Source of the DNA: an uncultured Candidatus Saccharibacteria bacterium
Lineage (GTDB): Bacteria; Patescibacteriota; Minisyncoccia; UBA6257; 2-01-FULL-56-20
Direction: 5' to 3'
Assembly (NCBI GenBank): GCA_964505005.1
Contig: CAZDFQ010000001.1
Location: 114,458 to 178,457, forward strand
Length of the DNA: 64,000 bases
In this document: one piece after another, positions 4,722-58,740 of the stretch
Position numbering within the stretch: the stretch's first letter is position 1
Layout of the letters: every line of letters starts with the position of its first letter
Program-made: the position numbers and the translations under genes
Notes under the pieces: generated by a model
What the model saw: the letters and a program-made list of their open reading frames with translations, nothing else
Database searches by the model: none
Told to the model about the DNA's origin: nothing

Positions 4722-5036
4722 TCATTTTATTTCAAAATTTTCGAATTTTCCAGTCCGCCTGCCTGCCGGCAGGCAGGCTTTGCCGTATGAAAATTCAATC
4801 CGTTCGACATTGGCAAGCGGCGGCCCCTTTTTGCACCATTCCAAAAATCTCTTCAAGTTTTTCTCGTCTCCTTCGGCTTCGATATAAACCGAGCCGTCGT
4901 CTTCATTTCTCGCCAATCCTTTAAGGCCCGACTCGTCGGCTTTAATTTTCGCCGTATGCCTAAAAAATACTCCTTGGACCCGGCCAAAAATTTTAATTCT
5001 AAGAAATTTATCCGCCATATCCTTTTGGATTTTCAA
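4722..5036 (-). CDS. acyP: Acylphosphatase whose C-terminal ~25 codons are encoded by a dispersed repeat (the CCTGCCTGCCGGCAGGCAGG module).
   Basis: Acylphosphatase signature-like VQGVFFR plus G-x-V-x-N-x-x-D-G. The tail ...ACLPAGRRTG is coded by repeat family A. Confidence 0.6.
   Translation of the reverse strand: MKIQKDMADKFLRIKIFGRVQGVFFRHTAKIKADESGLKGLARNEDDGSVYIEAEGDEKNLKRFLEWCKKGPPLANVERIEFSYGKACLPAGRRTGKFENFEIK
4745..4835. repeat. Family A repeat copy (CCTGCCTGCCGGCAGGCAGG module) inside the acyP 3' coding end.
   Basis: The 20-nt perfect palindrome CCTGCCTGCCGGCAGGCAGG plus the ATTGGCAAGCGG arm. Confidence 0.6.
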
Positions 5037-5049
5037 CTTTAACCCCTTA

Positions 5050-5075
5050 TTCTCTAATTCGCTCGAATTAGAGAA
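5050..5075. repeat. Family B palindrome TTCTCTAATTCG-NNN-CGAATTAGAGAA (copy 1 of 6), immediately 3' of the yfiH-like gene stop.
   Basis: 26-nt near-perfect palindrome. The other copies are at 9121-9147, 12976-13000, 14969-14994, 15290-15315 and 41285-41310. Confidence 0.7.
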
Positions 5076-5077
5076 GG

Positions 5078-5830
5078 CTAATTTTTAATGCCGACTACCG
5101 TTGCCATCCGGCCTTCGGGTTCGCCGGTTTTCCGCGACCGATAATGGGAAAAGAAATTTTTGTCAACGATAGTATCCACATCTGCGATTTCAATGTTCTC
5201 TCGGTTTATACCTGCCGAAACAAGCTGATGAATATTATAGCCAACCAAATCTATTCCTGTCTTCCCGTTTTTTGAATCAATCAAAAAATTTTTCCATTCG
5301 TTATGACCAATGATACGTTTCGTTAATTCATCTCCATCAAATAAATATGATTCTTTGCGGACGCCGGGACCGATGCCTACAAAAATATCTTTAGAGTTAC
5401 TTCCCGCTTTCTCAAATTGCTCAATGATTTTTTGAACAAACATCTGCGGCGTATTAATCCTACTCAAATGCGCGAGCGCCAATATTCTTTTTGAGAAATC
5501 ATAGAAAATTATCGGCAGGCAATCGCCAGTTGGCAGAAACAAAAAAAGATTTTTCTCGGCGGTTATGGCGGCGTCAGCTTTCGGCCCGCCATTGGGACCA
5601 TTCACCCCCTGTCCCTTGAACGACTTATCAACTGAAATTATATCGGTGCCGTGGAAATCATCGAGGCGAATGCAATTCTCAAAGCCGATGCCCAGCTTGC
5701 TCAAAAACCTTTTACGATTGTCGACGACTTCTTCGGGCGCCCCGAAAGAAAAAGACATATTGCTGTCGGATTTATCGGAAAAACCGTGAATGAGATTGGG
5801 GAATTTTTTCAAACCCGGCAGTTGATACAT
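5078..5830 (-). CDS. YfiH/PgeF-family (DUF152, laccase-domain) purine-nucleoside phosphorylase / peptidoglycan editing factor.
   Basis: N-terminal IHGFSDKSD(GG) pattern, a conserved His/Cys arrangement, and ~250 aa length. Confidence 0.6.
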   Translation of the reverse strand: MYQLPGLKKFPNLIHGFSDKSDSNMSFSFGAPEEVVDNRKRFLSKLGIGFENCIRLDDFHGTDIISVDKSFKGQGVNGPNGGPKADAAITAEKNLFLFLPTGDCLPIIFYDFSKRILALAHLSRINTPQMFVQKIIEQFEKAGSNSKDIFVGIGPGVRKESYLFDGDELTKRIIGHNEWKNFLIDSKNGKTGIDLVGYNIHQLVSAGINRENIEIADVDTIVDKNFFSHYRSRKTGEPEGRMATVVGIKN

Positions 5831-5881: not shown

Positions 5882-5968
5882 ATGAAGCTTCGCTTCATCA
5901 ATCGGTTCGCTCGGCAATCGCAAGAATTTTATATTCTTGTGTTGCCTCGCTGCCGATTGTAGGACGCT
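5882..5968. repeat. Dispersed repeat family A, copy with the GGCAATCGCAAGAAT core (GAAGCTTCGCTTCATCAATCGGTTCGCTC...TCGCTGCCGATTG).
   Basis: Near-identical copy at 28964-29045. The arms CATCAATCGGTTCGCTC and CTCGCTGCCGATTG are related inverted segments. Confidence 0.7.
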
Positions 5969-6582: not shown

Positions 6583-6585
6583 TTA

Positions 6586-6624
6586 CTATTATTATATCGC
6601 ATATGCGATATAATAATAGTAATT
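6586..6624. promoter_or_regulatory. Family D AT-rich palindromic element (CTATTATTATAT-CGCATATGCG-ATATAATAATAGTAATT) placed 4 nt upstream of the tsaC start codon. It contains TATAAT on both strands.
   Basis: Conserved arms with a variable palindromic core; other copies at 7518-7556 and 58819-58857. Confidence 0.4.
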
Positions 6625-6654: not shown

Positions 6655-6760
6655 GTATTTGGCAGCGAGTCCGCAAGGAAAACGAATTTTATCTGCGGCG
6701 AGCCCTGCCTTGCCACCTGTCCGGCGACAAACAGGGTAGGCAGGAAACCAAATGAAAAAA
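6655..6760. repeat. Family A repeat copy (degenerate) upstream of tsaC.
   Basis: TTTGGCAGCGAG...GCGGCGAGCCCTGCC...CAGGGTAGGCAGG. Confidence 0.5.
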
Positions 6761-7480: not shown

Positions 7481-7517
7481 CGTCCAAATTATTAATTAAC
7501 TAAATTCAAGCTGTTTA

Positions 7518-7556
7518 CTATTATTATATTACAATTGTAATATAATAATAGTAATT
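7518..7556. promoter_or_regulatory. Family D element (core TACAATTGTA) between the rnhA stop and the HAD hydrolase start.
   Basis: CTATTATTATATTACAATTGTAATATAATAATAGTAATT. Confidence 0.4.
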
Positions 7557-8976: not shown

Positions 8977-9078
8977 ATGAAGCTTCGCTTCATCAATCGG
9001 TTCCCTGCCTGCCGGCAGGCAGGGCTCGCCGGAAATAAATGTCTTGCATTCACTTCCTTCTCGCTGCCGATTGGAGAA
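8977..9078. repeat. Family A repeat copy with the CCTGCCTGCCGGCAGGCAGG module.
   Basis: GAAGCTTCGCTTCATCAATCGGTTCCCTGCCTGCCGGCAGGCAGGGCTCGCC...TCGCTGCCGATTGG. Confidence 0.7.
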
Positions 9079-9120
9079 AATAGAATTTAGAATGTAGAAG
9101 TGTGAAAAAGATGTTTTTTA

Positions 9121-9147
9121 TTCTACGATTCGCTCGAATTAGAGAAG
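9121..9147. repeat. Family B palindrome copy (variant left arm), 3' of the Cys-rich paralog 1 stop.
   Basis: TTCTACGATTCGCTCGAATTAGAGAAG. Confidence 0.6.
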
Positions 9148-9155
9148 ATAATTTC

Positions 9156-10988
9156 CTACGCTACTTCTTGATTGTAGCATTCTTCGCAATACACGATTTC
9201 CGGACGCTCCGGCGCATAAGCGGTCTCGAACTCATTCGGGCAGGGTTCGGCCCCGTGAAAATGTCTCGTAGTATTTTCATAGACGATTTGCGTTTGGCTC
9301 TTGGCGCTTTGCAAGCCTGTGCACATACATTTCCGCTTCTGCAGTTTCATCGGATTCCGGTTTTTCAATCTTTCGGCATAGCGGCAGCTCGGGCACAAGC
9401 GCGGCAGGGGCAAGCCGAATCTTTTGTAGAAATCGAACTCGTTCCTGATGAACCGAAAAGCGCCGCCGCATCTCAAACAGCCGATGGTCTTGGCCAATAA
9501 ACTCTCGTCTGCGTCTTTGATATGGTCAGGTAAATCAACGGCTGGCACAGCAATCCAGAATTCTCTTTTCTTGGGCTCGCGCCAGAAATAGCCCCTGGCT
9601 TCGGCAGCGGCGCGGCTCAACGGATAATAATCCTGGGCCTTGGTCTCGTTATAGGCGAGCGGCGAAAATTCCGGCGGGAAAAACTCCCCATACTTGTAAA
9701 CAATTTCCCTTGTCTCTTGTCCCTTGCCTGCCCCGTTGGAAGCTTGCTTTCCTGCGGGGTTGCTTGTCACTCGTGAAATATAGGGCATTTCATCCATATG
9801 TCTGACAATTTTCTCCCGCAGAGAAAAATATTCATCTTTTGAATACTCTTTATTGAGAATGCAATACTGCTGTTTTTTCAGGCCAACGCAGCCGAAGAGA
9901 TCGGAAGAAGAATGGCAATTTACTGAATACTCCAAGTCGCGGCAGGCCGGCCAGCAATCAAAACAGAATTTTAAATTATGGCAGCTGTCGCCGCAATTCA
10001 CCGACTCATATATTAGTTCAACATTCTCGCCCCAATTGCTGTAATCATAAGAATCCTTAACATATTGGCTAGTATTATGAATGAATTTGGAATTTTCCAC
10101 GCCGCCCACCTCGTAACAATGACGGGCGTTCTTAGACCAATAAACATAGTCGCCGCTGATGTTAACGCAGTCCGGCGTCGAATGGATGTATTTAACCGGA
10201 AAATGCAAACGGAATTCCTCGAATTCTTTTTTTATTTTGAGAAGCGACTGATAAGAGCCAAGGTTAAATTCTTTGAGTTTTTTCTCGTGGTCCTCTTTGG
10301 TGTAGGGCGTGTTGAAAATATGATATTTTTTATGGCTCAAGCTGACGCAGCCAAAGCAATTCTGACAATCAGTACAATCCACTAAAAACCATGAATTCAG
10401 GCAGTCCGCCGCCTCTTCGCTGAAAAATACCTGATAACAATTGTTGACCCGATAGAGCTCATAACACAATTCACTGGAAAGAGTGCAATAAAAATCGAAA
10501 GAGCTGCGCATTCCAACAAACGCCACGCCGTAGGCACAATCTTCGCCATTGCCGGCGTTAAAACAGAGATAACAATTTTTCAAATAAGACGCCTTGTCAG
10601 AATAATCGCTATTTATCAGCCCCCTTATCGAACGCGAGGGCCAAGGCACCGAATAATAAAGTTCTTTGAACTGCTCGAAAAATGGCCGCGAGAAATCGTA
10701 ATCCCGGCCGTAATCCAGGGGATTCCATTTATCCGACCACCAGTAATCGTGCTCGTAAATTTTAAGCGGCGCTTCTTCTGGCCAGCCCGAAAACAACCCC
10801 TTGCCGGTTAAGCTGTCTTTGTTTCGAAAAAGATTATGCTCATTCCAGAAAATCAGCCGGCGCACGGCCCGGCACTCCGGACACCAGGTCGGCGCCGGCA
10901 CGCTCATTCTTTTGTAAAACTGAAAATCATCCGGCTCAATGACGAATTCCGATTTACAGTTTTGACATATTTTGGTTTCTCGAGTCAT
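9156..10988 (-). CDS. Cysteine-rich paralog 1 (610 aa). Zinc-ribbon-like motifs sit at both termini with internal Cys-rich repeats; family and function unknown.
   Basis: N-terminal CQNCKSEF...FYxKxxVPAPTWCPECR. C-terminal ...FxFYxxxxLPLPRLCPSCR...HFHGxxxCPNEFETAYAPERPEIVYCEECYN. Internal repeated NCFGCVxLxxKxYCIxNKxYSKxEY units. It shares all of these with the ORFs at 11183-12958, 13013-14842 and 38711-40489. Confidence 0.7.
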   Translation of the reverse strand: MTRETKICQNCKSEFVIEPDDFQFYKRMSVPAPTWCPECRAVRRLIFWNEHNLFRNKDSLTGKGLFSGWPEEAPLKIYEHDYWWSDKWNPLDYGRDYDFSRPFFEQFKELYYSVPWPSRSIRGLINSDYSDKASYLKNCYLCFNAGNGEDCAYGVAFVGMRSSFDFYCTLSSELCYELYRVNNCYQVFFSEEAADCLNSWFLVDCTDCQNCFGCVSLSHKKYHIFNTPYTKEDHEKKLKEFNLGSYQSLLKIKKEFEEFRLHFPVKYIHSTPDCVNISGDYVYWSKNARHCYEVGGVENSKFIHNTSQYVKDSYDYSNWGENVELIYESVNCGDSCHNLKFCFDCWPACRDLEYSVNCHSSSDLFGCVGLKKQQYCILNKEYSKDEYFSLREKIVRHMDEMPYISRVTSNPAGKQASNGAGKGQETREIVYKYGEFFPPEFSPLAYNETKAQDYYPLSRAAAEARGYFWREPKKREFWIAVPAVDLPDHIKDADESLLAKTIGCLRCGGAFRFIRNEFDFYKRFGLPLPRLCPSCRYAERLKNRNPMKLQKRKCMCTGLQSAKSQTQIVYENTTRHFHGAEPCPNEFETAYAPERPEIVYCEECYNQEVA

Positions 10989-10994
10989 GTTCTA

Positions 10995-11110
10995 CATTTG
11001 GCAGCGAGGAGAAAAGTGAAAATTAACAATTTTCATTTTGGCCGAGCGAACCAAATGAAAAAACGAAGTTTTTCATATTTGGCAGCGAGAAGCAAAATGA
11101 AAAAATGAAG
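10995..11110. repeat. Family A-derived degenerate repeats (two TTTGGCAGCGAG units) upstream of paralog 1.
   Basis: ACATTTGGCAGCGAGGAGAAAAG...TTTTGGCCGAGCGAACCAAATG...ATATTTGGCAGCGAGAAGCAAAATG. Confidence 0.5.
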
Positions 11111-11155
11111 TTTTTTAATTTTTAGCGCTATGTTACGGCCGCTGTTACACAGTTA

Positions 11156-11182: not shown

Positions 11183-12958
11183 TCAGATAACTTCTGCGTT
11201 GTAGCATTCCCGGCAATACACGATTTCCGACCGGTCCGGAGCAAAAGCTGCTTCAAATTCATTAGAGCAATGACTGGCGCCGTGAAAATGTTGCGCCTGA
11301 TTTTTATACACGCTGTTTTCGCTTCCTTGTCCCAGGCACTGACATTTTCTTTTCCAGAAGCGCAAAGGATGCGGCTGGTCCTTTAATTTTTCCCGCAAGC
11401 GGCAGAAAAAACACTGGCGCGGCAAAGGGACATTCATCTGCCTGGAGAATGAAAGTTCCTGCGGAATAATGCGAAAGGCGCGGCCGCAGGTCTTACAGCC
11501 GATGGTTTCTTTCAGAATCGACTCGGAAACATCGCGAATGTGGTCAGGAATATCGTCCGCTGGCAAAGTAATCTGATATTCTGTCGGTTCAACATCTTTC
11601 CATTCGTAACCCTGGGCTAAGGCCTCTTCTTTGCTTAAAGGAAAATAAACAAAGGCAAATGATTCGTTGTAAGCCAATGGCGAAAGCTCGAGTGGGAAAA
11701 ATTCGCCGTAGCGATATACCCTCCCTCGCTTATCTTTATAGGGAGCGGCTGACATTTGCTGGATAATCCTCGGCACAAGTTTTTCGTATTCCTCTTTGGA
11801 ATATTGTTTGTTAAGAATGCAATACTGCTTTTCCCGGAGCGAAACGCAGCCGAAAATATTGCTGCAGGCGTCTATACACATCCAGCCATACTGCACCTCG
11901 CGAAGATTGTCATAACAATTGGCCGTAAATTTTATGTTAAAAATATTCAAGCCGCTCATCGCCACTTCGTAAATCAATTCCGCCACGTCTCCCCAGGCAA
12001 AATAATCATAGGCGCTGGCTACCGGCTTTGTTTCAACAAATGAAACATAGCGAGAATCTTCTACGCCTTTCACCTCGAAGCATTTCTGGCAGTTTTTTGA
12101 TTCAAACACCAAAAGCCCGGTTACGTCCTTGGAAAATTCCTGCCAAGATGTTTTCACCGGATATTTCAGCCAGTGTTTTCTGGCTTCTTCTTTAAGCCAA
12201 GTATAAATTTTATACGAGCCGAGGTCCCATTCTTTGAGTTTTTCAAAATATTCCTCCTTAAGATAGGGCTTATTAAAAATGTAGTATTGTTTGTTCCGAA
12301 GATTGGCTGAAGCAAAACAATTCTGGCAGCCCCAGCACTGCCAGAGAAAAGCCGAGTTGTTCGATTCGTTGGTCCAGTTAAGATTCACGCCGCCATAATC
12401 TTTCCAGCAATGAAACAAGTCATAAGAATATTCGCAGGAATCGGCAAAAACAATGTTATAGCAATCTTTTGAACGATTGACAAAATGGCCATAAGCGCAG
12501 TTCTCAATGTAATCCGCTTCAATAAGAAGATAGCAGTTTTTGCCGTGGCCAAAGAGGTTGTTATACGGCGAAGTCGGCGAAAAAACCGGATAATCGGTCC
12601 ACAGCCCAAGGTGCGGTACGCGCCTCATCAGCTCGTCGAGCTGTTCGAAAAACGGTCTGGAAAAATCGTAGTCGCGGCCGTATTCCAGCGGGTCCCAATT
12701 GTCAGACCACCAACAAGAAGTGCAGTAAACCGTGTAGGGCTTATCTGCCGAGTAAACTGAAATGAATTCTTTACCGCACAAATCGCATTTTCTTTTGTAT
12801 AAACTGGCGAAACTGACCTGAGCCATCCGCCGCTGGAGCCGGCACTCCGGACACCAAGTCGGCGCCGGGACTTTTATTTTCTCGTAGAATAAAAAATCCT
12901 CGGGTTCTATTACGAACTCCGATTTGCAATTCTGACAAACCTTCTTTTCTGACTGCAT
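11183..12958 (-). CDS. Cysteine-rich paralog 2 (591 aa), which retains an extra CxxC...CxxC pair near the N-terminus.
   Basis: It has the same N- and C-terminal motifs as paralog 1. A second ribbon, CDLCGKEF...YCTSCWWSDNW, is present where paralog 1 has lost the cysteines. Confidence 0.7.
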   Translation of the reverse strand: MQSEKKVCQNCKSEFVIEPEDFLFYEKIKVPAPTWCPECRLQRRMAQVSFASLYKRKCDLCGKEFISVYSADKPYTVYCTSCWWSDNWDPLEYGRDYDFSRPFFEQLDELMRRVPHLGLWTDYPVFSPTSPYNNLFGHGKNCYLLIEADYIENCAYGHFVNRSKDCYNIVFADSCEYSYDLFHCWKDYGGVNLNWTNESNNSAFLWQCWGCQNCFASANLRNKQYYIFNKPYLKEEYFEKLKEWDLGSYKIYTWLKEEARKHWLKYPVKTSWQEFSKDVTGLLVFESKNCQKCFEVKGVEDSRYVSFVETKPVASAYDYFAWGDVAELIYEVAMSGLNIFNIKFTANCYDNLREVQYGWMCIDACSNIFGCVSLREKQYCILNKQYSKEEYEKLVPRIIQQMSAAPYKDKRGRVYRYGEFFPLELSPLAYNESFAFVYFPLSKEEALAQGYEWKDVEPTEYQITLPADDIPDHIRDVSESILKETIGCKTCGRAFRIIPQELSFSRQMNVPLPRQCFFCRLREKLKDQPHPLRFWKRKCQCLGQGSENSVYKNQAQHFHGASHCSNEFEAAFAPDRSEIVYCRECYNAEVI

Positions 12959-12975
12959 ATTTTTGAAGTCCCTTA

Positions 12976-13000
12976 TTCTACCATTCGCGCGAATTAGAGA
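12976..13000. repeat. Family B palindrome copy (degenerate), 3' of the paralog 3 stop.
   Basis: TTCTACCATTCGCGCGAATTAGAGA. Confidence 0.55.
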
Positions 13001-13012
13001 TAGAGAAAGATA

Positions 13013-14842
13013 TTATACAACTTCAGCATTATAGCAGGCTTCGCAATAAACGATTTCCGGCCTGTCGGGAGCGTAAGATGTTTCAAATTCATTGGGGCAA
13101 TGGTTAGAGCCATGGAAATGCTTAACAGCATTCTGGTAGATTATTTCTTGGTTCTCGCCGGCCCGCGATGAGCTTGTCGAACCTGCGCATTGGCATTTCC
13201 TGTGCCAGAGTTTGAGAGGATTCCTTTGTTTAATTCTCTGATAATGGCGGCAGTTGGGGCAGAAACGGGGCAAAGGCAGATTCATTTTCCGGTAAAACTG
13301 AAGTTCCTGAGGGATAATTTTGAAGGCCGTGGTGCAGCCGGCCGCTTCTTGTTCAAGAGTCAAACCCTTTCGGGCACCGGCGTTGCTGGCGCATTCGATT
13401 ATTTCATCAAGCATGGAATCCTCGACATCCTTTATGCGGTCTGGCAGTTGGTCGGCGGTCATCGTTATTTTGTAATTTCTTTCTTCGGGTTCTTTCCAGC
13501 CGTAGCCCTGTTTCTCTGCTTCTTCTTTAGTCAGAAGAAAATATTCCTGGGCAATGGTTTCGTTATAGGCGAATGGAGAGAGTTCCGGAGGGAAGAATTC
13601 GCCATACTTATAGATTCTGCCTTTTTTATCTATATAAGGCAGAGAATCCATCTGCTCAATGAGGCGAGGCAATAATTTCTCGTATTCTTCTTTAGGGTAT
13701 TGCTTGTTCAGAATGCAGTAGGATTTGTTGCGGAGGCCGATGCAACCGAAAAGATTAGAAGAATTATGACAATTGAAACTATAAAATACATTGTATGAAC
13801 CATAGACAACGCTTGTGCTGATAAGATGATAGCTCTGTCTGTCTCCTGAATCGAAAACTTCGTACATCAATGAACCTAACCCCGCTCCGGGGCCGGCATC
13901 ATATGAATCTTTCAACTGGACGCCTGCCCATTCAAGAAATTTACAATCTTCGGCTCCCTGAGCAATATCAAAACAAAAATGGCAATTTTTAGAATTTTCA
14001 ATATGGTCGCCGGTGACATCTACTGACCTCTGGATAGAGGCATAGCGATGGATGGATTTTTTTAATTCTTCCCGAAAAAGCGCTCTGAATTTTAAAAGGT
14101 TCGAATATCTTCCTAAATCGAATTTCTCGATTTTTTTAAGATATTCCTCCTTTGAATATTGCTGATTAAAAATGCAATAGGATTTATTTCTGAGATTCAC
14201 ACAACCGAAGCAATTTGAACAATTTTTGCAATCGTAAAGAAAAAAGGAATCGGTGCAATTGCCGCAGTCATTACTAAAAAACAACCGATAGGCCTTTTCA
14301 CAAAAGAGGTCATCGTAGCAAAGTTGCGATTCAATGACAGTATAAAGGTCCATTGAGTCCTTAACATAGAGAATACGATTTGAATACATTGTATTCTCGA
14401 TAAAACCCGAGGCAGAAATAAGGTAGCAGTCCTTACTGTCCATAGCCACATTACAATACTCGCTGTTGATGGCATTAGTGTTAGAAAGAGCAATCAGCGG
14501 GAATTTATCCCGAAGCATCCGGAATTGCCGGAAAAATGGCTGAGAAAAATCGTAATCGCAACCGTAATCGAGCGGATTCCACTTATCCGACCACCAATAT
14601 TTTTGGTCGTAAACCGTAAGTTTTTTTTCGGGAGAATAAATAGAAATAATATCATTACCGAAAGCGTCCTTCCGTTTGTAAAGCATCCTTTCGTTCCTGA
14701 AAGCCATTCTCCTTTTAAGTCGGCACTCCGGACACCAAGTCGGCGCCGGAACCTTGATTTTTTCGTAGAACAGAAAATCCGAAGTGTCTATAGCGAATTC
14801 GCTCTGACAATTTTGACAAACTCTTTTTTCAGAAATAGCCAT
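13013..14842 (-). CDS. Cysteine-rich paralog 3. The ATG at 14840-14842 (MAISEKRVCQNC...) is the likely start; the longest ORF extends to 14878 via a TTG.
   Basis: Conserved family motifs are present. The start was chosen by homology with the paralogs, which all begin M-x4-6-CQNC. Confidence 0.65.
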   Translation of the reverse strand: MAISEKRVCQNCQSEFAIDTSDFLFYEKIKVPAPTWCPECRLKRRMAFRNERMLYKRKDAFGNDIISIYSPEKKLTVYDQKYWWSDKWNPLDYGCDYDFSQPFFRQFRMLRDKFPLIALSNTNAINSEYCNVAMDSKDCYLISASGFIENTMYSNRILYVKDSMDLYTVIESQLCYDDLFCEKAYRLFFSNDCGNCTDSFFLYDCKNCSNCFGCVNLRNKSYCIFNQQYSKEEYLKKIEKFDLGRYSNLLKFRALFREELKKSIHRYASIQRSVDVTGDHIENSKNCHFCFDIAQGAEDCKFLEWAGVQLKDSYDAGPGAGLGSLMYEVFDSGDRQSYHLISTSVVYGSYNVFYSFNCHNSSNLFGCIGLRNKSYCILNKQYPKEEYEKLLPRLIEQMDSLPYIDKKGRIYKYGEFFPPELSPFAYNETIAQEYFLLTKEEAEKQGYGWKEPEERNYKITMTADQLPDRIKDVEDSMLDEIIECASNAGARKGLTLEQEAAGCTTAFKIIPQELQFYRKMNLPLPRFCPNCRHYQRIKQRNPLKLWHRKCQCAGSTSSSRAGENQEIIYQNAVKHFHGSNHCPNEFETSYAPDRPEIVYCEACYNAEVV

Positions 14843-14844
14843 AG

Positions 14845-14958
14845 ATTTCAGTACAAATAGAGCGGAGTCCCGCACCAAGCTTTACTTTGGTGCGCGGGTT
14901 CCGGTTCGATAGGGAACTCGATTTTACAATTCTGGCAGGTCCTGCTCTCTGATTCCAT
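14845..14958 (-). pseudogene. Degraded N-terminal fragment of a further Cys-rich paralog (~37 codons).
   Basis: The minus-strand translation is MESESRTCQNCKIEFPIEPEP...AWCGTPLYLY*. It matches the family N-terminus (CQNCKSEFVIEPEDF...PTWCPEC) but carries deletions and a premature stop. Confidence 0.55.
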
Positions 14959-14968
14959 AATTTTATTA

Positions 14969-14994
14969 TTCTCTAATTCGAGCGAATTAGAGAA
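14969..14994. repeat. Family B palindrome copy overlapping the ArsR-family gene stop.
   Basis: TTCTCTAATTCGAGCGAATTAGAGAA, exact. Confidence 0.7.
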
Positions 14995-15256
14995 GAGTCA
15001 AAATATTCTTGGCAGCCACTGGCTTATCGTCTGCCAAACGATAAAACATCTGCAAACTTCTTTGTTCTTTCTCAACAATATCGGCAGCTGCCAGAATCGC
15101 CAGATGTTTGGAGGTCGCTTTGAAAGAAAGATTTATCTCATCAGCGATTTCTCCAACCGGCGCTTCGCGATGTTCTTTGAGATAGCGGAGAATTGCCAAT
15201 CGCCGCCGATTCGCCAAGGCCTTTAATTGTCTCTCCAATTCTTTTTCTTTCATCAA
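14987..15256 (-). CDS. ArsR/SmtB-family HTH transcriptional regulator.
   Basis: LANRRRLAILRYL...VGEIADEINLSFKATSKHLAIL winged-HTH pattern; 89 aa. Confidence 0.7.
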   Translation of the reverse strand: MMKEKELERQLKALANRRRLAILRYLKEHREAPVGEIADEINLSFKATSKHLAILAAADIVEKEQRSLQMFYRLADDKPVAAKNILTLL

Positions 15257-15289
15257 TCAAATTATACTACATTATCCTTAATTCTCTTA

Positions 15290-15315
15290 TTCTCTAATTC
15301 GAGCGAATTAGAGAA
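15290..15315. repeat. Family B palindrome copy 3' of the pgk stop.
   Basis: TTCTCTAATTCGAGCGAATTAGAGAA, exact. Confidence 0.7.
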
Positions 15316-15344
15316 GAAAACTTTTTTGATTTGAATAGAAAAAT

Positions 15345-17172: not shown

Positions 17173-18480
17173 ATGGAGAAAAAACGCATTGTCATCCTCG
17201 GAGCCGGCTTCGGCGGCCTTCACGCCGCTTTTTTAATATCCAAAAAACTTAAAAAATTGGGGTTGCTTGGAAAATACGAAGTCATTATCGTTGACCGCAA
17301 CGAGCACCAAACCTATACTCCCCTTTTGTATGAAGCCGCAACCACATCCAAAATGACCGCGGACTCGACCGAGCTCCATTCGGTTGTCGCTTACAGCATT
17401 GCCAAACTGATTAGACGGCTGCCGATAAGATTTATCCAATCAGAAGTAAAAGACATCGACATCCCCCAAGGAGAGGTTAAGCTCGCTAATCAAAGAAAAT
17501 TGGCATCTGATTATCTTGTTCTAGCGTTGGGCTCGGAGGCAAACTATTTCAACATCCCGGGATTAAAAGAAAATTCTCTGCCGTTAAAAACATTCATCGA
17601 CGCGCTCAGAATAAGAGATACGATTCTGAACCTGATTGAAGGCGGAGACAATAACTTAAAAATCGTCATCGGCGGCGGCGGCTCGACCGGCGTGGAACTC
17701 GCCGGCGAACTCAAAATGTGGTGCGGCGAGCTGAGCGACGAAGAATATAATAAATGCCGCATTGACATCGCCGTCATCGAAGCAGCACCGACTATCTTGC
17801 CCGAATTTTCTCCGAAAGTAATCTCGTTGGTCAAAAAACGTTTGTCCTCTCTCGGCGTTAATTTAATCGAAGGCCAAACAATCGAAGAAGTCGGGAAAAA
17901 TGTTATGGTTTTGAAAAGTTCTTCGACCGGGTTCGGTGCCAGCGGCAAAAAAATAAATTTCGATATTCTAATTTGGGCCGGCGGCGTCAAGGCCTCGTCC
18001 CTCATTGAAAATCTCCCCTTAAAAACTGAATCGCGAGGCAGATTCGAAGTTGCCGAAAATATGAGGTGTTTGCCAAAAACCCCGGATTTAAAAATTTATC
18101 CCAAGGTCTACGCCATCGGCGACAACGCCTGCGTCTATGACAAAAACAAAAAACCGATTCCCGGCGTGGCCAGAGCGGCAATCAAAGAAGCTGAAATCGC
18201 GGCGCACAACATCATTGAAGAAATAAAAAATTCAGAGTTCAGAAATTGGAAATTAAAAATTAGAAATTACGCGCCGCGCCAATATCCCTATGTCATTCCG
18301 GTGGGCGGCAAATTCGCGGTTGCCGAAATAGGCTCTTTCGTCCTTTCCGGATTTCTCGGCTGGATTTTCAAAGGACTCGTCGAGCTCAATTATCTTTTGT
18401 CAATTATGCCTGTTTGGAAAGCGCTGTTGGTTTGGTTAAAAGGACTAAAGATATTCATCCAGAACGACCGGCTAGGTTAA
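17173..18480 (+). CDS. FAD/NAD(P)-binding oxidoreductase, type II NADH:quinone oxidoreductase-like.
   Basis: Two dinucleotide-binding motifs (ILGAGFGGL and IVIGGGGSTGVELAGEL) and the GD motif AIGD. Confidence 0.65.
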   Translation: MEKKRIVILGAGFGGLHAAFLISKKLKKLGLLGKYEVIIVDRNEHQTYTPLLYEAATTSKMTADSTELHSVVAYSIAKLIRRLPIRFIQSEVKDIDIPQGEVKLANQRKLASDYLVLALGSEANYFNIPGLKENSLPLKTFIDALRIRDTILNLIEGGDNNLKIVIGGGGSTGVELAGELKMWCGELSDEEYNKCRIDIAVIEAAPTILPEFSPKVISLVKKRLSSLGVNLIEGQTIEEVGKNVMVLKSSSTGFGASGKKINFDILIWAGGVKASSLIENLPLKTESRGRFEVAENMRCLPKTPDLKIYPKVYAIGDNACVYDKNKKPIPGVARAAIKEAEIAAHNIIEEIKNSEFRNWKLKIRNYAPRQYPYVIPVGGKFAVAEIGSFVLSGFLGWIFKGLVELNYLLSIMPVWKALLVWLKGLKIFIQNDRLG

Positions 18481-41284: not shown

Positions 41285-41310
41285 TTCTCTAATTCGAGCG
41301 AATTAGAGAA
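41285..41310. repeat. Family B palindrome copy 3' of the galT-like gene, next to a tandem octamer repeat.
   Basis: TTCTCTAATTCGAGCGAATTAGAGAA, exact. Confidence 0.7.
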
Positions 41311-41324
41311 ATAAACTTATAGTC

Positions 41325-41390
41325 CTTCTTCTTATTTCTTATTTCTTATTTCTCATTTCTCATTTCTTATTTCTTATTTCTTATTTCTTT
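41325..41390. repeat. Tandem octamer repeat (TTCTTATT/TTCTCATT, about 8 units) overlapping the last codons and stop of the galT-like gene.
   Basis: Periodic 8-nt units are readable directly. Confidence 0.7.
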
Positions 41391-42406
41391 AACATCTTCG
41401 CCGCTTCATTGGGGTCAACGACATTTATTTCCACGCCGGTACTGAGTTCGAAACCAGCTGGAATGGAAATTTTCGGCAGAATTTCAATGTGCCAGTGGTA
41501 ATGTCTGTAGGCCGATTGATATTTTAACGGCGCGGTATGGATGAAAAAATTCAAATCCGGGTCGCGAAGATTTTTCCTGATTTTCCGGAGCGTCAGCTGC
41601 AAAATGGAAACAACCGGCTGAAGTTGAGCAGCCGGCGTCTTTTCGAAATACGACTGGTGTTTCAAAGGAAAAACTCTGATTTCAAATGGCTGGCGGGAAA
41701 CAAATGGCGCAATCGCCACGGCAAAAGAATTTTTGGCAATTATCCGTTTTTTGTTTTTCTCTTCGAATCTGAGCATCTCGCAATGAACGCAGCGCCGGTG
41801 TTTTTTGAAATAATGGTGCGAACCGGTGAGCGAATGCTGGACATCGGGTGGAATAATCGGCAAGGTTAGCATCTGATAATGAGGATGAGAAAGCGAAGCG
41901 CCGGCGCTTCCCCCGTAGTTGAAAAAAGTGGAAGTATAGGCGAAACATTTATCTTTGGAAAGTCGGCGGTAGCGACTCTGAATCATTTTGAAAGCCTCGG
42001 TTGCTTCTTCGAATTTCAAATCAGGGAGGTTGCGTTCATGGTCTCTGGTAATTACCAGTTCATGGTTTCCAATCCCGCTTAAAATTTCGTAGGGTCCCCG
42101 AGTGAAAGACGAAGCGCAGACCTCCCGATGGATGAGGGCCGGATATTTGTTGGGGATAACGGCGATGCGCCAGCTCCGACGCTTGCGGTCGGAGTCCCGA
42201 CCAGCGGCGTCGGGATTCTTCTCTTTAGGATATATATCAATCGGCGGCCAATTACCTGATTTTTCCAAATCTTCAAAAGGGCAAGTTGATGGCGGCGATA
42301 TCGGCCGTTTTTTCTTTTTGGGCAAAAGGCCATGCGGCCGCTTGGCCCGCTCCGGCGCCAGAATTATCCAGTCGCCGGAAATCAAATCTTGTCGAAATTC
42401 AGACAT
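41381..42406 (-). CDS. Galactose-1-phosphate uridylyltransferase-like (GalT/HIT-like nucleotidyltransferase).
   Basis: HPHYQ (HxHxQ) active-site motif; N-terminal Cys/His metal-site remnants; ~340 aa. Confidence 0.55.
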   Translation of the reverse strand: MSEFRQDLISGDWIILAPERAKRPHGLLPKKKKRPISPPSTCPFEDLEKSGNWPPIDIYPKEKNPDAAGRDSDRKRRSWRIAVIPNKYPALIHREVCASSFTRGPYEILSGIGNHELVITRDHERNLPDLKFEEATEAFKMIQSRYRRLSKDKCFAYTSTFFNYGGSAGASLSHPHYQMLTLPIIPPDVQHSLTGSHHYFKKHRRCVHCEMLRFEEKNKKRIIAKNSFAVAIAPFVSRQPFEIRVFPLKHQSYFEKTPAAQLQPVVSILQLTLRKIRKNLRDPDLNFFIHTAPLKYQSAYRHYHWHIEILPKISIPAGFELSTGVEINVVDPNEAAKMLKK

Positions 42407-49729: not shown

Positions 49730-49773
49730 CTTAGTTAAAAATCTCTAATTTCTAAATCCTAATTTCTAAATAA

Positions 49774-49790
49774 TCCGCCAGGTGGCGGAT
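49774..49790 (-). terminator. Hairpin ATCCGCCAGGTGGCGGAT downstream of the dacA-like gene (minus strand), followed by T-rich sequence.
   Basis: 7-bp GC stem; T-rich sequence follows on the minus strand. Confidence 0.4.
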
Positions 49791-50938: not shown

Positions 50939-50940
50939 AA

Positions 50941-51075
50941 AAGTTCAAAATGCAAAAATCTCAGCCCGAGGCAGTCCCTGCTCGTCCGGCAGGCGGGCGG
51001 CAGGCGGGCGCCTTTGGCGGGAAAATGCAAAATGACAATGTAAAATTAAAAATTATTAAAATCGGATTTGAAATT
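50941..51075. repeat. Partial copy (one arm plus centre) of the 52684 MITE-like element, between the dacA-like gene and scpB.
   Basis: AAAGTTCAAAATGCAAAAATCTCAGCCCGAGGC...GCCTTTGGCGGGAAAATGCAAAATGACAAT...AAAATTATTAAAATCGGATTTGAAATTAA. Confidence 0.6.
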
Positions 51076-51817
51076 AAGCAATCGAATTCGGCATTTCATT
51101 TTTTGGAATTTCGCTTTCTGTCGCCTCCGGCGCGCCAGGAAGCTCCGCTTCATCAATCGGTTCGGCCCGCCCGCCTGAGTTGCTCTCAGACAAGTCGGGC
51201 GCGGTCGCCGAAAACAAACTGGTGTTTACTTTCTTCTCGCTGCCGATTGGGAGAAGAAGCGACCGGAATTTTTCATAATCCGGCAATTCTTCTTTTTTGC
51301 TGAGACCCAGATGTTTAAAAAGCTCGAAGCTTAGCTGATAAAGATAAGCCGCGGGATTGTTAGGATCGGCGAATCTTTCGAGCAGACCGCGGAGAAGAAG
51401 GTTTCTCAAAGTAAAAGATGAATTGACTCCACGGCGATATTCTATTTCGCTTCTCGAAATAGGGCCGAGATAAGCCACTATAGAAAGTACCTCCAAACTG
51501 GCCGGCGTTAAATCCTCGCTGAGTTCTTCCTTGACAATATTTTCCAAAAATTTTCCGAAGGCTGGTTTGGTAACCAATTGAATCTTACCGCTGTCGCTGA
51601 TTAAAGCCAATCCCCGGTCTTCGGTTTGCAGCCGCTTTTCGAACTCCTCAAGAAGAGGAGAGGCTTCTTTTTGGGGTAAGTCAAGCATCTTGACGACTTT
51701 CTCCCGACTTAAGGGCTCGCCGTAAATAAAAAGAAGCGCCTCCAGTTCAGCTAATTTTTGTTCCAAATTCATAGTATAGATTACGCCACTCGAATATCCC
51801 GAAAACACCCGAATCAC
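51074..51817 (-). CDS. scpB: Segregation and condensation protein B, with a C-terminal tail encoded by repeat family A.
   Basis: LEALLFIYGEPLS motif and two winged-helix domains. The tail ...AEPIDEAE... corresponds to the dispersed repeat. Confidence 0.75.
   Translation of the reverse strand: MIRVFSGYSSGVIYTMNLEQKLAELEALLFIYGEPLSREKVVKMLDLPQKEASPLLEEFEKRLQTEDRGLALISDSGKIQLVTKPAFGKFLENIVKEELSEDLTPASLEVLSIVAYLGPISRSEIEYRRGVNSSFTLRNLLLRGLLERFADPNNPAAYLYQLSFELFKHLGLSKKEELPDYEKFRSLLLPIGSEKKVNTSLFSATAPDLSESNSGGRAEPIDEAELPGAPEATESEIPKNEMPNSIA
51139..51250. repeat. Family A repeat copy inside the scpB 3' coding end.
   Basis: AGCTCCGCTTCATCAATCGGTTCGGCCCGCCCGCC...TCTCGCTGCCGATTGGGAG. Confidence 0.6.
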
Positions 51818-52631: not shown

Positions 52632-52683
52632 CTCAGGCTTGCTGTTATACTAAATTATAACACTTGGAATTATTTGCTAAATT

Positions 52684-52905
52684 TAAAGTTCAAAAATCTC
52701 AGCCCGAGGCTGATCCGCCTTTGGCGGAAAAATTAAAAATGACAATCCAAAATCAGAAATTATCAATTTATTAAAATCGGATTTTGAAATTAATACATTT
52801 TGTAATTTTGAATTGTCATTTTCCCGCCAAAGGCGCCTGCCGGCCGGACGGGCAGGAATCCGTCTCGGGCTGAGATTTTTGCATTTTGTATTTTGCATTT
52901 TTATA
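52684..52905. repeat. ~220-bp MITE-like element with long inverted arms (AAATCTCAGCCCGAGG...CCTTTGGCGGGAAAATGACAAT around an AT-rich centre).
   Basis: Left arm 52688-52745 and right arm 52807-52885 are reverse complements with indels. A partial copy lies at 50941-51075. Confidence 0.65.
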
Positions 52906-55775: not shown

Positions 55776-55880
55776 ATTTGCTTTTGTAGATTATAACTTG
55801 GCAGTTGCTGAAAGCAACGATTTACCGTAAAATAAATCCGTTCAGGATTTAGAACTTAGAGATTAGAGATTTTAATTGAT

Positions 55881-56984
55881 ATGGCTTTGGCGCTCTACCG
55901 CAAATATCGGCCGAAAAAACTCGACGAACTGTTAGGCCAGGAAACCAATGTCGAGATTCTCAAAAACGCTGCCAGCCAGAACCGGCTGGGTCAGGCCTAT
56001 CTTTTCTACGGTCCAAGAGGCACGGGTAAAACCACCACGGCCCGGCTGATTGCCAAACTGTTGAACTGCGAGCGCCGGCACCAAGACCCGGAATTCCAGA
56101 AACTCGGCGAACCCTGCAATGAATGCCGGAGTTGCAAAGAAATCGACTCTAATATTTCATTCGATGTCGTGGAAATCGACGCGGCTTCGAACCGCGGCAT
56201 TGACGAAATCCGGAATCTTAAAGAAAGCGTCAAAACCGCGCCGGTCGGCAGCCGATTCAAGGTCTACATCATTGACGAAGCCCATATGCTGACTGGTCCG
56301 GCTTTTAATGCGCTTTTAAAAACCCTGGAAGAGCCGCCAGCGCATGCCATTTTCGTGCTGGCGACCACGGAATACGAAAAAATGCCGGCCACGATTACTT
56401 CGCGCGCTCAGCGCTTTCTTTTTAGAAAACTTCCCAAAGCAAAGATTCTTGAAAAACTCACTGGTATCGCCAAGGCGGAAAAAATTGACATTGAACCAGC
56501 GGCCTTAGAGTTGGTGGCGGCCGCGGCTGAAGGCAGTTTCCGCGACGCCGAATCGCTGCTTGACCAAATCAGCTCGTTCCATTCCAAAATCGATTTGCCA
56601 ACCGCCGAACGACTGACTGGCCGGACTGGTTTCAAAAAAATCGAGGAACTGGCCGAACTTATCGTCAAAAACAATCTCCAGGGCTCGCTCGACTATCTTT
56701 TACAAATCAACGAAGAGGGGCACAACCTCATCCAGCTGACCAAAGACCTGATTCATTATTTAAGAAAGATTCTCTCGCTTAAACTTAATCCAAATCTGGA
56801 AAAAATTTTTGAACTGGAGCTGACCTCGGACGAAATTCTCCGTCTAAAAAAAATGACGCTTCACGCTGAGCCGGCAAAAATAATCAAACTGCTCAAGGCC
56901 TTCATCCGCGCTTATTCAGAAATGCGCTACAGTCCGTTTTTGACAATCCCCTTGGAGATTGCCTTAATAGAAAATCTGTCTTGA
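55881..56984 (+). CDS. dnaX: DNA polymerase III gamma/tau subunit (short form, domains I-III only).
   Basis: Walker A GPRGTGKTT, zinc module CNECRSCKEI, SRC motif region; 367 aa. Confidence 0.75.
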   Translation: MALALYRKYRPKKLDELLGQETNVEILKNAASQNRLGQAYLFYGPRGTGKTTTARLIAKLLNCERRHQDPEFQKLGEPCNECRSCKEIDSNISFDVVEIDAASNRGIDEIRNLKESVKTAPVGSRFKVYIIDEAHMLTGPAFNALLKTLEEPPAHAIFVLATTEYEKMPATITSRAQRFLFRKLPKAKILEKLTGIAKAEKIDIEPAALELVAAAAEGSFRDAESLLDQISSFHSKIDLPTAERLTGRTGFKKIEELAELIVKNNLQGSLDYLLQINEEGHNLIQLTKDLIHYLRKILSLKLNPNLEKIFELELTSDEILRLKKMTLHAEPAKIIKLLKAFIRAYSEMRYSPFLTIPLEIALIENLS

Positions 56985-56993
56985 ACGAAGCTA

Positions 56994-58505
56994 TTACCAC
57001 TGACTCGCCGAGTTCTGCGGCGTGGGCGCGGCCGAAATATGAAAAGAATTGCTGCTCCAAGAATCGCGGACATAGCTTTCATCTTTGGGAATCTCGTTCC
57101 AGCTAACTTCATCGGTTTTGACGCCGCCTGAATCATAAAGAATAACGGCGTTTTGGGTGTAAGCCAGGGTGTAGGATTTGGGCCATAAAACATCGGGAGT
57201 CAGCGGCAGTGTAGCGCTGGCATTGGCTGCCAAAAAGTAGTGGTTTGGCAGGATTTTCAAACCCTCCAACCGCGAAGCGGCGACCAAAATTGATTCTGAG
57301 CCGGTCGAGCTTCGTTTTTTGATGGACCAGCCAGTTAAATCAATCGCCTGGCTGCCGGCATTATAAAGTTCCACAAATTCGTCATAAGAACTAACGTTGC
57401 TGCCAGCCATTATTTCGCTTATCAGAATGCGGCTGGCTAGAATCTGGCTGCCGCTGCTGACAGCCGAAGAATTTTGCGTTCCAGTAGCCGTCGTTGAGGC
57501 GGTGTTATTATCAATTGTTGAGGCCGGAATTTCTGACTGGGGCATCGACGTTACCGACCCTGAAATTTCAAATGCCATTGTATTTTCCGCTTTGGGCGTG
57601 CCGCCGGGGTTGGCACTCGTGTGCCAGCTCAAATCCAAGAAACTTCGTTCCATTGTCTTCTTGGCAGAGTTATCGCCGGCCGGCCATTTTTTGGAAGCAT
57701 CTATTTCGTCAGCTAGTTCGCATTCCGGCGAAAAAATTTTCAGCCGGACACCGCTGTTCGCCAGGGCGCCGCTATAAATTTTATCTGCCGGAACATTCGG
57801 CGCCGAATTGTCGTCGCTTCTTTCCAAAAGAAAAAGTCCGCCGGCTTTCAAATAATCTTTTTCTTCAAAAATAATTTTTATATTTTCATCGCTTGATAAA
57901 ATATGCCAGCTGGCCAAACTCAAATCGCGGCCGGAATTATTTTTCAGTTCCAGCCATTCATCGCCGCTGTTTTCTTTACTGCCCATCCAAGCGAGCTCGC
58001 TGAACAAAATTTTGTGGCTAGGAGATTGGACAACTGAAAAATTGCAAGCGACCGATGACGATTTTTTATTTTCCGAATTTTCGGAAATAGTCGTTTCTGG
58101 AACCGAGGCGCTTGAAGAAGAACTATTTTTATTGACGCTCGATTTAGTATCAGAATTTTCTGAAAATGAATTTAGGTTATTAGATTTTCCGGCAACCGAT
58201 TTCCCAAGAGCTCTTGTTGACAAAAATTTGTTTTCTCCAACAGAAACAGAACTACTTGCTTCCCTATTTTCTCCCAAATCAATTTCCATCGCCGGTTTAT
58301 TCTCCCCGGCTGAAAATATCTCCTTGAATGTTCCGGAAACAAGTCCGGCGGTCCGCTGAAAAAAATTTTGCGAACTATCAGCCGAAGAAAATTTCCACGA
58401 AACAAAGGCGATGGAAACGATAAACAATCCTCCCAAAATAACGACCAGGGCCAAAGCCGAAACCCCGGCCCGCCGAAAATTACTTTTTTCTGCCAGTTCC
58501 GGCAT
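56994..58505 (-). CDS. Secreted or membrane-anchored protein with two lamin-tail domains (LTD).
   Basis: N-terminal TM helix, then a Ser/Asn-rich linker. Two LTD-like motifs are present: LFSELAWMG...DEWLELKNNSGRDLSLASW and ILISEIMAG...DEFVELYNAGSQAIDLTGW. Confidence 0.6.
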   Translation of the reverse strand: MPELAEKSNFRRAGVSALALVVILGGLFIVSIAFVSWKFSSADSSQNFFQRTAGLVSGTFKEIFSAGENKPAMEIDLGENREASSSVSVGENKFLSTRALGKSVAGKSNNLNSFSENSDTKSSVNKNSSSSSASVPETTISENSENKKSSSVACNFSVVQSPSHKILFSELAWMGSKENSGDEWLELKNNSGRDLSLASWHILSSDENIKIIFEEKDYLKAGGLFLLERSDDNSAPNVPADKIYSGALANSGVRLKIFSPECELADEIDASKKWPAGDNSAKKTMERSFLDLSWHTSANPGGTPKAENTMAFEISGSVTSMPQSEIPASTIDNNTASTTATGTQNSSAVSSGSQILASRILISEIMAGSNVSSYDEFVELYNAGSQAIDLTGWSIKKRSSTGSESILVAASRLEGLKILPNHYFLAANASATLPLTPDVLWPKSYTLAYTQNAVILYDSGGVKTDEVSWNEIPKDESYVRDSWSSNSFHISAAPTPQNSASQW

Positions 58506-58559
58506 AAATTTAAGAAATTTCCCCTAAAATTAACCGCCGAAAAACTTTTATCTATTTTA

Positions 58560-58740
58560 CAATCGGCAGCGAGGCAACACAAGAATAAGTAAATTCTTGC
58601 GATTGCCGAGCGAACCGATTGATGAAACGAAGTTTCATTCAATCGGCAGCGAGAAGAAAGCAAATGAGAATATATTTGTTTTTGACGAGCCCTGCCTGCC
58701 GGCGGACAGGGAGCCGATTGATGAAGTTAAAGTTTCATGA
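58560..58740. repeat. Two tandem family A copies (one of each core type) in reverse orientation.
   Basis: AATCGGCAGCGAGGCAACACAAGAAT...CGAGCGAACCGATTGATGAAACGAAG is followed by AATCGGCAGCGAGAAGAAAG...CCTGCCTGCCGGCGGACAGGGAGCCGATTGATGAAG. Confidence 0.7.

Follow-up and report, generated by a model that had tools for sequence, protein, structure and literature searches.

What is the short, folded sequence that recurs in either orientation along a chromosome of an uncultured Candidatus Saccharibacteria bacterium, and why does it keep its fold? The question is raised by a stretch of 64,000 nucleotides (positions 114,458 to 178,457 of contig CAZDFQ010000001.1; hereafter 'the window'), which is ordinary chromosome of the Candidate Phyla Radiation (CPR); for its ScpB and L17, the nearest relatives bear the names Liptonbacteria, Paceibacterota or Patescibacteria. 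The window holds nine copies, including a divergent one, of a repeat that we refer to as family A. Our conclusion is that, most probably, selection acts on the single-stranded fold of this repeat and family A is a non-autonomous, non-coding dispersed repeat of CPR, similar in behaviour to enterobacterial repetitive intergenic consensus (ERIC) sequences, repetitive extragenic palindromic (REP) sequences and miniature inverted-repeat transposable elements (MITEs). The kind of element is known; the family itself has apparently not been described before, as a search of the available literature for repeats, MITEs or RNA motifs of CPR turned up nothing pertinent.

The unit of family A is 80–115 bases long and has a fold of three helices, described here on the top (+) strand, which is the strand that reads ATGAAGC...CCGATTGTAG. 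P1 is a 7-bp hairpin with a 3-nt loop (ATGAAGC-TTC-GCTTCAT); immediately 3′ of it, P2 forms an outer stem of 7–8 bp, CAATCGG(T)/(G)CCGATTG, which encloses a variable hairpin, P3. The internal loops (5′, TTCGCTC; 3′, CTCGCTG) are able to form a 2-bp GC clamp, and the unit ends 3′ in TA(G/A). P3 comes in a few subfamilies that recur across genomes (GGCAATCRCAAGAAT..., GCCGAAAATAAATG... and GGCAAAAATAAAAGC...). Long copies have a second type of variable hairpin of their own, AAATAAATG...CATTTACTT, together with an additional GC-rich hairpin between the TTC and the GCTCG of the 5′ loop, which produces a three-way junction; this additional hairpin is the palindrome CCTGCCTGCCGGCAGGCAGG in three copies and has other sequences in the copies starting at 51137 and 6657. 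An earlier sequence-only reading of the window had correctly recognised conserved arms around a variable core, but it took a 20-nt palindrome for an alternative core. Because that palindrome is inserted as an extra hairpin in the 5′ loop, it is an added module.

The ends of the unit have features of their own. Where two copies stand in tandem, the junction between them (CCGATTG-A-ATGAAAC..GTTTCAT-CAATCGG) forms a 14-bp hairpin, from which the unit is, topologically, a rod nicked between the stacked P1 and P2 helices. GTAG is present at the top-strand 3′ end only, in 18 of 27 copies, and the bases just beyond that end show a −10-like TARNAT bias (TA, R, any base, A in 74% and T in 67%). In one subfamily, a small palindrome, TAGCTTAATAAGCTA, directly follows the element (5759–5775 in locus L002, 1660–1676 in L033, and also in L004), and the whole unit in L004 lies within a perfect 12-nt inverted repeat, ATTAATGTCTGT/ACAGACATTAAT.

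That the dispersed family is real, as the sequence-only reading had proposed, is established by its arms, which occur far above chance, and by covariance models. In the window, the arm GAAGCTTCGCTTCATCAATCGGTTCGCTC has five occurrences at up to three mismatches where chance gives none, the short arm CTCGCTGCCGATTG has eight at up to two mismatches (0.5 by chance), and the 20-nt palindrome occurs three times exactly and once with two mismatches. A repeat finder recovers the same sets of copies as these searches. One covariance model (A1 and R1) was built from 21 copies and a second (R2) from 29, and the window was scanned with filters off; R1 and R2 together give eight full copies. To these the sequence adds a divergent copy, a copy with an internal deletion and two fragments that are doubtful. 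The full and divergent copies are 81–116 nt long and share no conserved reading frame. They lie in both orientations without bias (four on the + strand, five on the − strand), and some are near-identical, two points on which the earlier reading was right: the copies starting at 5882 and 28964 are 95% identical (repeat-finder family D15).

The pairing in these copies is conserved. In fold predictions, which had been proposed as a check, short copies fold far better than shuffled controls on both strands, whether as RNA or as DNA (z = −6 to −7). In the model alignment of 26 copies, 88% of cells are paired, compared with 33–46% when the partners are slid by one to three columns, and compensatory or double changes occur at 20 of 31 base pairs, with none of 500 shuffles reaching the observed values. 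The arm sequences were fixed by the design of the search, but covarying arms also appear in copies that only the model detected: the outer arms in L034 are wholly different (CCCGA/TCGGG), P1 in L026 is 13 bp long and unrelated in sequence, and the copy of the window starting at 10992 has covarying arms (CATTTGG/CCAAATG) as well as a covarying 5′ hairpin (GAAAAAC/GTTTTTT). The internal loops are strongly conserved yet dispensable, because a copy in L035 has perfect pairing in their place.

The family is not confined to the window: it is present in more than 20 other contigs of Patescibacteria, so the proposal survives the refuting condition that the sequence-only reading had set for it. With an exact two-arm pattern, one copy each was detected in three species genomes of GTDB (labelled Paceibacterota, Patescibacteria group and 'Saccharibacteria'), and 18 metagenome contigs also yielded copies, in addition to two chance matches; the covariance models add copies in L005, L023, L026, L033, L034 and L035. 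Searches of the phage and plasmid collections IMG/VR, INPHARED and PLSDB brought up no copies; three matches of a loose pattern in IMG/VR are due to chance. Copy density differs between genomes by about five-fold, with nine copies in the 64-kb window (roughly one per 7 kb) versus four in 146 kb of loci that were fetched via proteins, independently of the element (roughly one per 36 kb). In the Logan short-read assembly of SRR5161805, which represents the same genome, contigs end inside the copies starting at 5882, 31686 and 58557 – the behaviour of a genome-wide repeat.

Does the family also come and go at individual sites? The sequence-only reading had suggested a search for empty sites in relatives, and occupancy does differ at three places, although some copies have been retained at orthologous positions. 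The scpA-scpB-S11 block of L025 and L026 lacks the element at the scpB 3′ end, and in L026 a copy separates scpA from scpB instead. The spacer between rpoA and rplQ contains a copy in L009 and none in L032, L033 and L034. The window, L003 and L035 agree in having an identically oriented copy in the spacer beside a PMT_2-like glycosyltransferase gene; in L036 this spacer is 69 nt long, and in L037 it is an empty 15 nt whose sequence, GATAATGTATAATGT, resembles both sides of the window copy (GAGAATGTAGAATGT ... TAGAATGTAGAAT). Both the window and L035 have TAGAATGT on the two sides of the copy here. Exact flanking direct repeats of at least 9 bp accompany 5 of 26 copies, whereas shuffled flank pairs show them in 5% of cases; they include ATTCGGATG at the 5882 copy and TTTAGARAT at both copies in L017, and the copy starting at 31686 is flanked by a 10-bp repeat with one mismatch.

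Orthologous-site copies occur in genomes whose flanking proteins are merely 47–63% identical, so several copies are old, contrary to the recent mobility that near-identical copies had suggested to the sequence-only reading. Such retention is where the main competing explanation enters, namely that family A is a host-encoded functional RNA – a protein-binding or processing site, or a signal for mRNA stability or termination – which is inherited vertically and sporadically lost, and does not move. We consider this unlikely, though by no means negligible. It draws on strong stem covariation alongside conserved loop nucleotides, on the PMT_2 spacer copies kept in three genomes in one orientation, on the Mur ligase copy kept in L014 and L016, which is more conserved than its coding flanks, on the −10-box-like sequence just after the element, and on a copy in L018 located just downstream of a 23S rRNA gene and perhaps co-transcribed with the rRNA operon. 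It also draws on the bottom-strand loops, CAGCGAG/CGAGCGAA, which are purine-rich and place tandem G.A in a CGAG context, as is typical of structured RNA.

Several observations weigh against a mobile repeat. In L014 and L016, a Mur ligase gene (MurE/MurF type) has at its 3′ end an orthologous copy that is 95% identical between the two and includes a compensatory change from G-C to A-T; the coding sequence on its flanks is 70–80% identical. Retention of this kind is as compatible with a host function as with a selfish element that persists. As RNA, the bottom strand folds more stably in 22 of 27 copies, and it has 38 G.U pairs versus 17 on the top strand (a near-invariant T.G at the base of P2 excluded), while the short copies of this genome slightly favour the top strand; in the 8977 copy, the predicted energies are −46.1 kcal/mol for the bottom strand and −38.8 for the top. 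The G.U counts and computed energies thus lean towards the bottom strand without being decisive. The flanking direct repeats have inconsistent offsets, many of them lying in heptamer arrays that create repeats themselves. No transposase, HUH enzyme, integrase or reverse transcriptase was found in the window, and the element has no terminal inverted repeats: its 5′ end (ATGAAGC...) bears no relation to the reverse complement of its 3′ end (CTACAATCGG...), and the inverted arms CAATCGG/CCGATTG lie internal to the 5′ hairpin. Finally, the genomes compared include no near-identical filled and empty pair, so insertion is not seen directly.

What tells against a functional RNA is the way in which copies are distributed and built. 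The top strand is sense to neighbouring genes in about two-thirds of cases and antisense in about one-third, so a single RNA strand cannot serve all sites, and the neighbouring genes are unrelated. Density differs about five-fold between genomes, with near-identical copies within this one; copies occur in tandem and in internally deleted form, and one lies inside the 3′ end of scpB. The conserved loops are replaced by perfect pairing in L035, and neither an intrinsic-terminator U tract nor a consistent promoter was found.

We therefore keep to the non-autonomous dispersed repeat, for which the following course of events may be proposed. Copies would insert, in either orientation, into intergenic spacers that are rich in AT or into the final codons of a gene, with an enzyme supplied in trans recognising the folded strand. 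They have multiplied in this genome. Once in place, they persist for long periods with an intact structure, are presumably co-transcribed with neighbouring genes and sometimes provide stop codons or C-terminal tails; such effects on neighbours would be incidental and occasionally, perhaps, useful. Movement in trans, the identity of the active strand and any effect at the RNA level are the conditional parts of this proposal.

Which enzyme might recognise such a fold? One answer is that the element is a single-stranded DNA recognition structure for an HUH enzyme (a relaxase, Rep protein, Y1 transposase or REP-associated tyrosine transposase, RAYT), built on a design like that of the lactis-plasmid motif and spreading by 'peel and paste' or by nicking and joining. 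This seems rather improbable to us. The resemblance that prompts it comes from Rfam, which at gathering thresholds finds only a tRNA-Asn in the window and nothing that matches the element. A scan by E-value brought up just one family, below threshold: RF01742 (lactis-plasmid) matches the bottom strand at full length in all three copies tested, with 28.9, 23.6 and 21.3 bits where 70 would be required. The features that align are the outer stem, a hairpin set between the CGAG...CGAGYGAA loops, and a further hairpin on the 3′ side. Because the reciprocal match of R1 to a lactis-plasmid instance is weak (14.3 bits), we treat the resemblance as a lead and not as membership. The two share an outer stem, A-CGAG ... 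CGAG-YGAA loops round a variable hairpin and a second, small 3′ hairpin, all on the bottom strand of the element; they differ in that the element has an outer stem half as long and is chromosomal and multi-copy, whereas RF01742 is single-copy and stands beside mobC on plasmids of Lactobacillales.

The plasmid context gives the HUH idea some of its appeal. RF01742 occurs directly upstream of mobC in 349 plasmids of Lactococcus and Enterococcus, of which 230 are typed as mobilizable. In L028 (2501–2620; NC_008504.1) and the 348 other plasmids, the motif overlaps the start of mobC and is followed by a hairpin and AAGTGCG; the sequence ...CCCAAGTGCG that comes after it resembles a MOBQ nick region, from which we infer a site like an origin of transfer (oriT). 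The lactis-plasmid motif may accordingly be an oriT, and a DNA structure rather than an RNA; its original description makes no statement about an oriT (PMC2864571).

Other features of the element are compatible with the same idea. On the bottom strand, P1 becomes C(GAA)G. Mini-hairpins of the C(GAA)G type and tandem G.A in a YGAR context are stable in DNA, and in RNA too. The element has no terminal inverted repeats, and its topology is that of a rod nicked between stacked helices. Set against this are the low scores (29 bits against a threshold of 70, and 14 in the reciprocal direction), the lack of an HUH gene nearby among the proteins of the window and the fetched loci, the absence of the orientation bias known from IS200/IS605 (four + and five − copies here) and the possible flanking duplications of 8–10 bp, which are unexpected for Y1 transposition. 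More broadly, Pfam and NCBIfam scans, which covered about 50 proteins from the window together with 29 neighbours from other loci, revealed no partner enzyme. 

A related and more specific idea, which we rate as an outside chance, is that the core – outer stem, CAGCGAG/CGAGCGAA loops and C(GAA)G hairpin – constitutes the recognition or catalytic structure of an undescribed, CPR-specific class of mobile element. Two forms are possible: a single-stranded DNA handled by an HUH enzyme or relaxase, distantly related to the lactis-plasmid motif, or an RNA with an activity of its own. If true, either would explain why the core stays constant across divergent CPR lineages while its surroundings vary.

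How the copies meet genes bears on one more alternative, that the repeat is a short protein-coding module, either a mini-ORF (open reading frame) from ATG to TAG or a cassette for C-terminal extension. Short copies do run from ATG to TAG or TAA within 81 nt, and three genes read into copies or the palindrome. The clearest case is scpB, in which the conserved protein ends near residue 188 and the remaining ~58 residues derive from the bottom-strand element and downstream sequence; the tail reads LPIGSEKK...EPIDEAEL, on the strand opposite to that of the 51137 copy, and is unique to this genome, homologues being 183–205 amino acids long without it. The Sua5/YrdC gene, which runs on the minus strand, takes its last 11 codons and its stop from the final 34 nt of the 5882 copy, and in L014 and L016 the stop codon of the Mur ligase gene is the TGA inside the element's ATGAA. 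The sequence-only reading had proposed that the repeat is translated as a C-terminal tail in acyP and scpB, which holds for scpB; the acyP tail runs through an isolated palindrome only, not a full repeat. Yet the ATG frame closes early in many copies (such as L001, L006 and the 10992 copy of the window) and is shifted by indels, variation is compensatory by base pair and not by codon, and the translated tails differ in strand and frame. A coding module is hence scarcely credible, and frame analysis effectively refutes it.

Most of the individual copies in the window had been located by the sequence-only reading. The full short-type copy at 5882–5962 (+; R1 92.6 bits; RNA fold z = −6.9) sits between a Cu-oxidase_4 gene and the Sua5/YrdC gene. 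The divergent long-type copy at 6657–6752 (−), which had been listed at 6655 and is real, was read from the sequence and is a partial match to R2 (13.5 bits); it has arms CATTTGG/CCAAAT, its different GC-rich extra hairpin and a degenerate 5′ hairpin. At 8977–9076 (+; R2 63.9 bits) lies a full long-type copy with the extra hairpin CCTGCCTGCCGGCAGGCAGG and a three-way junction. A full short-type copy at 10992–11076 (−; R1 74.3 bits) ends 3 nt upstream of the start of the gene at 9156–10988, and abutting it head to tail is the internally deleted copy at 11077–11116 (−; read from the sequence, repeat family D18), which retains the 5′ hairpin, 5′ arm, 3′ loop and 3′ arm. The full short-type copy at 28964–29044 (+; R1 85.9 bits) fills the 114-nt divergent spacer between a conserved gene of 133 amino acids and the PMT_2-like glycosyltransferase gene. 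A full long-type copy with the GC palindrome at 31686–31786 (−; R2 58.4 bits) lies 19 nt upstream of a Mur ligase gene, is antisense to both neighbours and forms with the 8977 copy an inverted repeat (I1) with a 93% match. The copy in the 3′ end of scpB (51137–51252, +; R2 42.1 bits) is of the long type with a different GC-rich extra hairpin. The tandem pair consists of a full short-type copy downstream (58557–58638, −; R1 90.2 bits) and a long-type copy upstream (58639–58738, −; R2 41.9 bits). Two sites on the earlier list do not stand as copies: that at 4745 is only an isolated 22-nt GC palindrome, GCCTGCCTGCCGGCAGGCAGGC, in the 3′ tail of acyP (4757–4778, no strand, no covariance-model match), a module in common with long copies rather than a full element, and that at 59095, a possible remnant (TTGGCAGCGGAG...GCCAA at 59095–59125, no strand) inside the ORF at 58890–59243, matches neither R1 nor R2.

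In general, the copies occupy short AT-rich spacers between unrelated housekeeping genes. Intergenic spacers consist of arrays of 7-nt units (TAGAAAT, TAGAGAT, TAGGATT), found in the window at 18237–18269, 41332–41395, 49739–49774, 55840–55873 and 62978–63082 and also flanking copies in L005, L009, L017, L020, L032 and L034. The arrays often comprise two inverted sets that make long AT-rich hairpins (such as 62980–63021 with 63041–63082); the units resemble −10 boxes, and family A copies often lie within such arrays. The L018 copy (999–1080) lies 9 nt upstream of a LAGLIDADG endonuclease ORF and just downstream of the 23S rRNA gene, among LAGLIDADG ORFs at 516–989 and 1907–2488 and the 23S rRNA gene at 2484–5826; judging from this arrangement, it may be inside or next to the rRNA transcription unit.

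Other repeats and genes stand out as well. The PMT_2-like glycosyltransferase gene contains, in frame, a 152-nt repeat that occurs twice (29646–29797 and 30225–30376; 92% identical) and corresponds to insertions of ~45 residues (..QMTNQAQ.PNDKNFSNL.F.RPSQPKRLLRWSRRFDWRFGFWIL) absent from the L003 orthologue; a third insertion spans residues 113–155. In L014, at ~4890–4930 (alignment columns 516–555), the Mur ligase gene carries in frame a GC-rich palindromic stretch of 39 nt, GGCCCGCTTCGCCCGCGAAGCGAGGCGAGCGG, that is absent in L016, and GC-rich hairpins seem, in these genomes, to insert into genes and family A elements alike. The palindrome TTATTCTCTAATTCGAGCGAATTAGAGAA, which could be an operator or a terminator, has six copies (5037–5086, 9108–9157, 12963–13012, 14956–15005, 15277–15326 and 41272–41321), most of them adjoining paralogues of 600 amino acids and a small ArsR-type helix–turn–helix gene (14987–15256). 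There are four of these ~600-residue paralogues (9156–10988, 11183–12958, 13013–14878 and 38711–40489), in which only a C-terminal treble-clef zinc finger could be assigned, and similar unannotated genes of 580–600 amino acids flank the same ~130-residue gene in L035, L036 and L037. A separate family is the perfect or near-perfect AT-rich palindrome of 40 nt, TTACTATTATTATATCGCATATGCGATATAATAATAGTAA, with three copies (6583–6622, 7515–7554 and 58816–58855), and the repeat family of CGCCTTTGGCGGGAAAATGCAAAATGACAAT and AAAGTTCAAAATGCAAAAATCTCAGCCCGAG (50940–51060 and 52675–52897, inverted) brackets scpA-scpB. Further along, the ribonucleotide reductase gene at 59242–62967 contains an intein with a LAGLIDADG endonuclease domain, and, at 23412–25054, a gene for an MjaI-type (CTAG) restriction endonuclease adjoins an N4/N6 DNA methylase gene and is close to a VirD4/TraG-like ATPase gene (25706–28078), the latter being syntenic in L035 and L037.

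What follows for these genomes? Those of CPR are tiny and usually described as poor in repeats and mobile DNA, whereas the window reveals a structured family that extends across CPR lineages, can fill ~1.4% of a genome region and breaks short-read assemblies. It alters gene ends, through stop codons and the 58-residue tail of ScpB, and sits inside divergent promoter spacers. The family thus bears on the spread of small elements, the function of spacers, and the assembly and annotation of CPR genomes, and its covariance model is convertible into a curated family.

Where, then, does family A stand among known elements? Some candidates could be set aside. The arms CAATCGG/CCGATTG do not correspond to the RYYYAAC...GTTRRRY of integron attC sites, copies lie in both orientations and no integrase was found. 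Most copies lack the T run of an intrinsic terminator, only the small hairpin of the 8977 copy being terminator-like, and one-third to two-thirds of copies face the wrong way, whichever strand is considered. In a comparison by eye, hammerhead, box C/D and K-turn cores were rejected for want of the required order of motifs. An outward promoter, with a −35 box in P3 and a −10-like TAGAAT at the 3′ boundary, is kept as a side idea: a consensus scan put no promoter on the copies with any consistency, the −10-like bias is there, and the −35 box suits one subfamily only.

Closer parallels lie among small structured repeats. With REP sequences, their bacterial interspersed mosaic elements (BIMEs) and REPINs, family A shares an extragenic location, a structure, multiple copies and long residence in a lineage, as well as a single-strand fold that is the likely feature for recognition; it differs in having a three-helix fold of at least 81 nt instead of a 20–40-nt palindrome with a 5′ GTAG, and pairs that are head-to-tail instead of inverted doublets, and no RAYT gene (Y1 transposase) was found in the 64-kb window or the fetched loci. 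Palindrome-associated elements derived from IS200/IS605 have subterminal hairpins at either end, insert 3′ of a fixed tetra- or pentanucleotide without duplicating the target, and show a strand bias with replication; family A has hairpins and a conserved TA(G/A) at its 3′ boundary, its window copies lie four on + and five on −, and some copies may be flanked by direct repeats. MITEs such as Correia and RUP, and also BOX elements, are likewise non-coding, shorter than 300 bp, amplified within a genome and located near gene ends, and the modular build seen here recalls BOX A-B(n)-C, in which the inner modules vary in number; unlike MITEs, family A lacks terminal inverted repeats, has unproven target duplications and is conserved across very divergent genomes. 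The REP/MITE likeness noted by the sequence-only reading is therefore apt as a description of behaviour and not of membership, given the old copies and the lack of terminal inverted repeats, transposase or RAYT. Rickettsia palindromic elements also lie in frame inside or at the ends of coding genes, as family A does in scpB, Sua5 and acyP, but most copies here are intergenic and there is no sequence relationship.

Another close match in behaviour, and in behaviour only, is with ERIC sequences, also called intergenic repeat units. These are small imperfect palindromes that occur between genes in either orientation and acquire longer variants through insertions at fixed internal sites; their copy number varies widely among related genomes, some orthologous copies are kept, and we know of no transposase for them. 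Family A differs from them in its host – CPR, and not Enterobacteria or Vibrio – in its apparently unrelated sequence, its shorter length, and its separate 5′ hairpin and conserved internal loops, but it has every one of the ERIC traits just listed.

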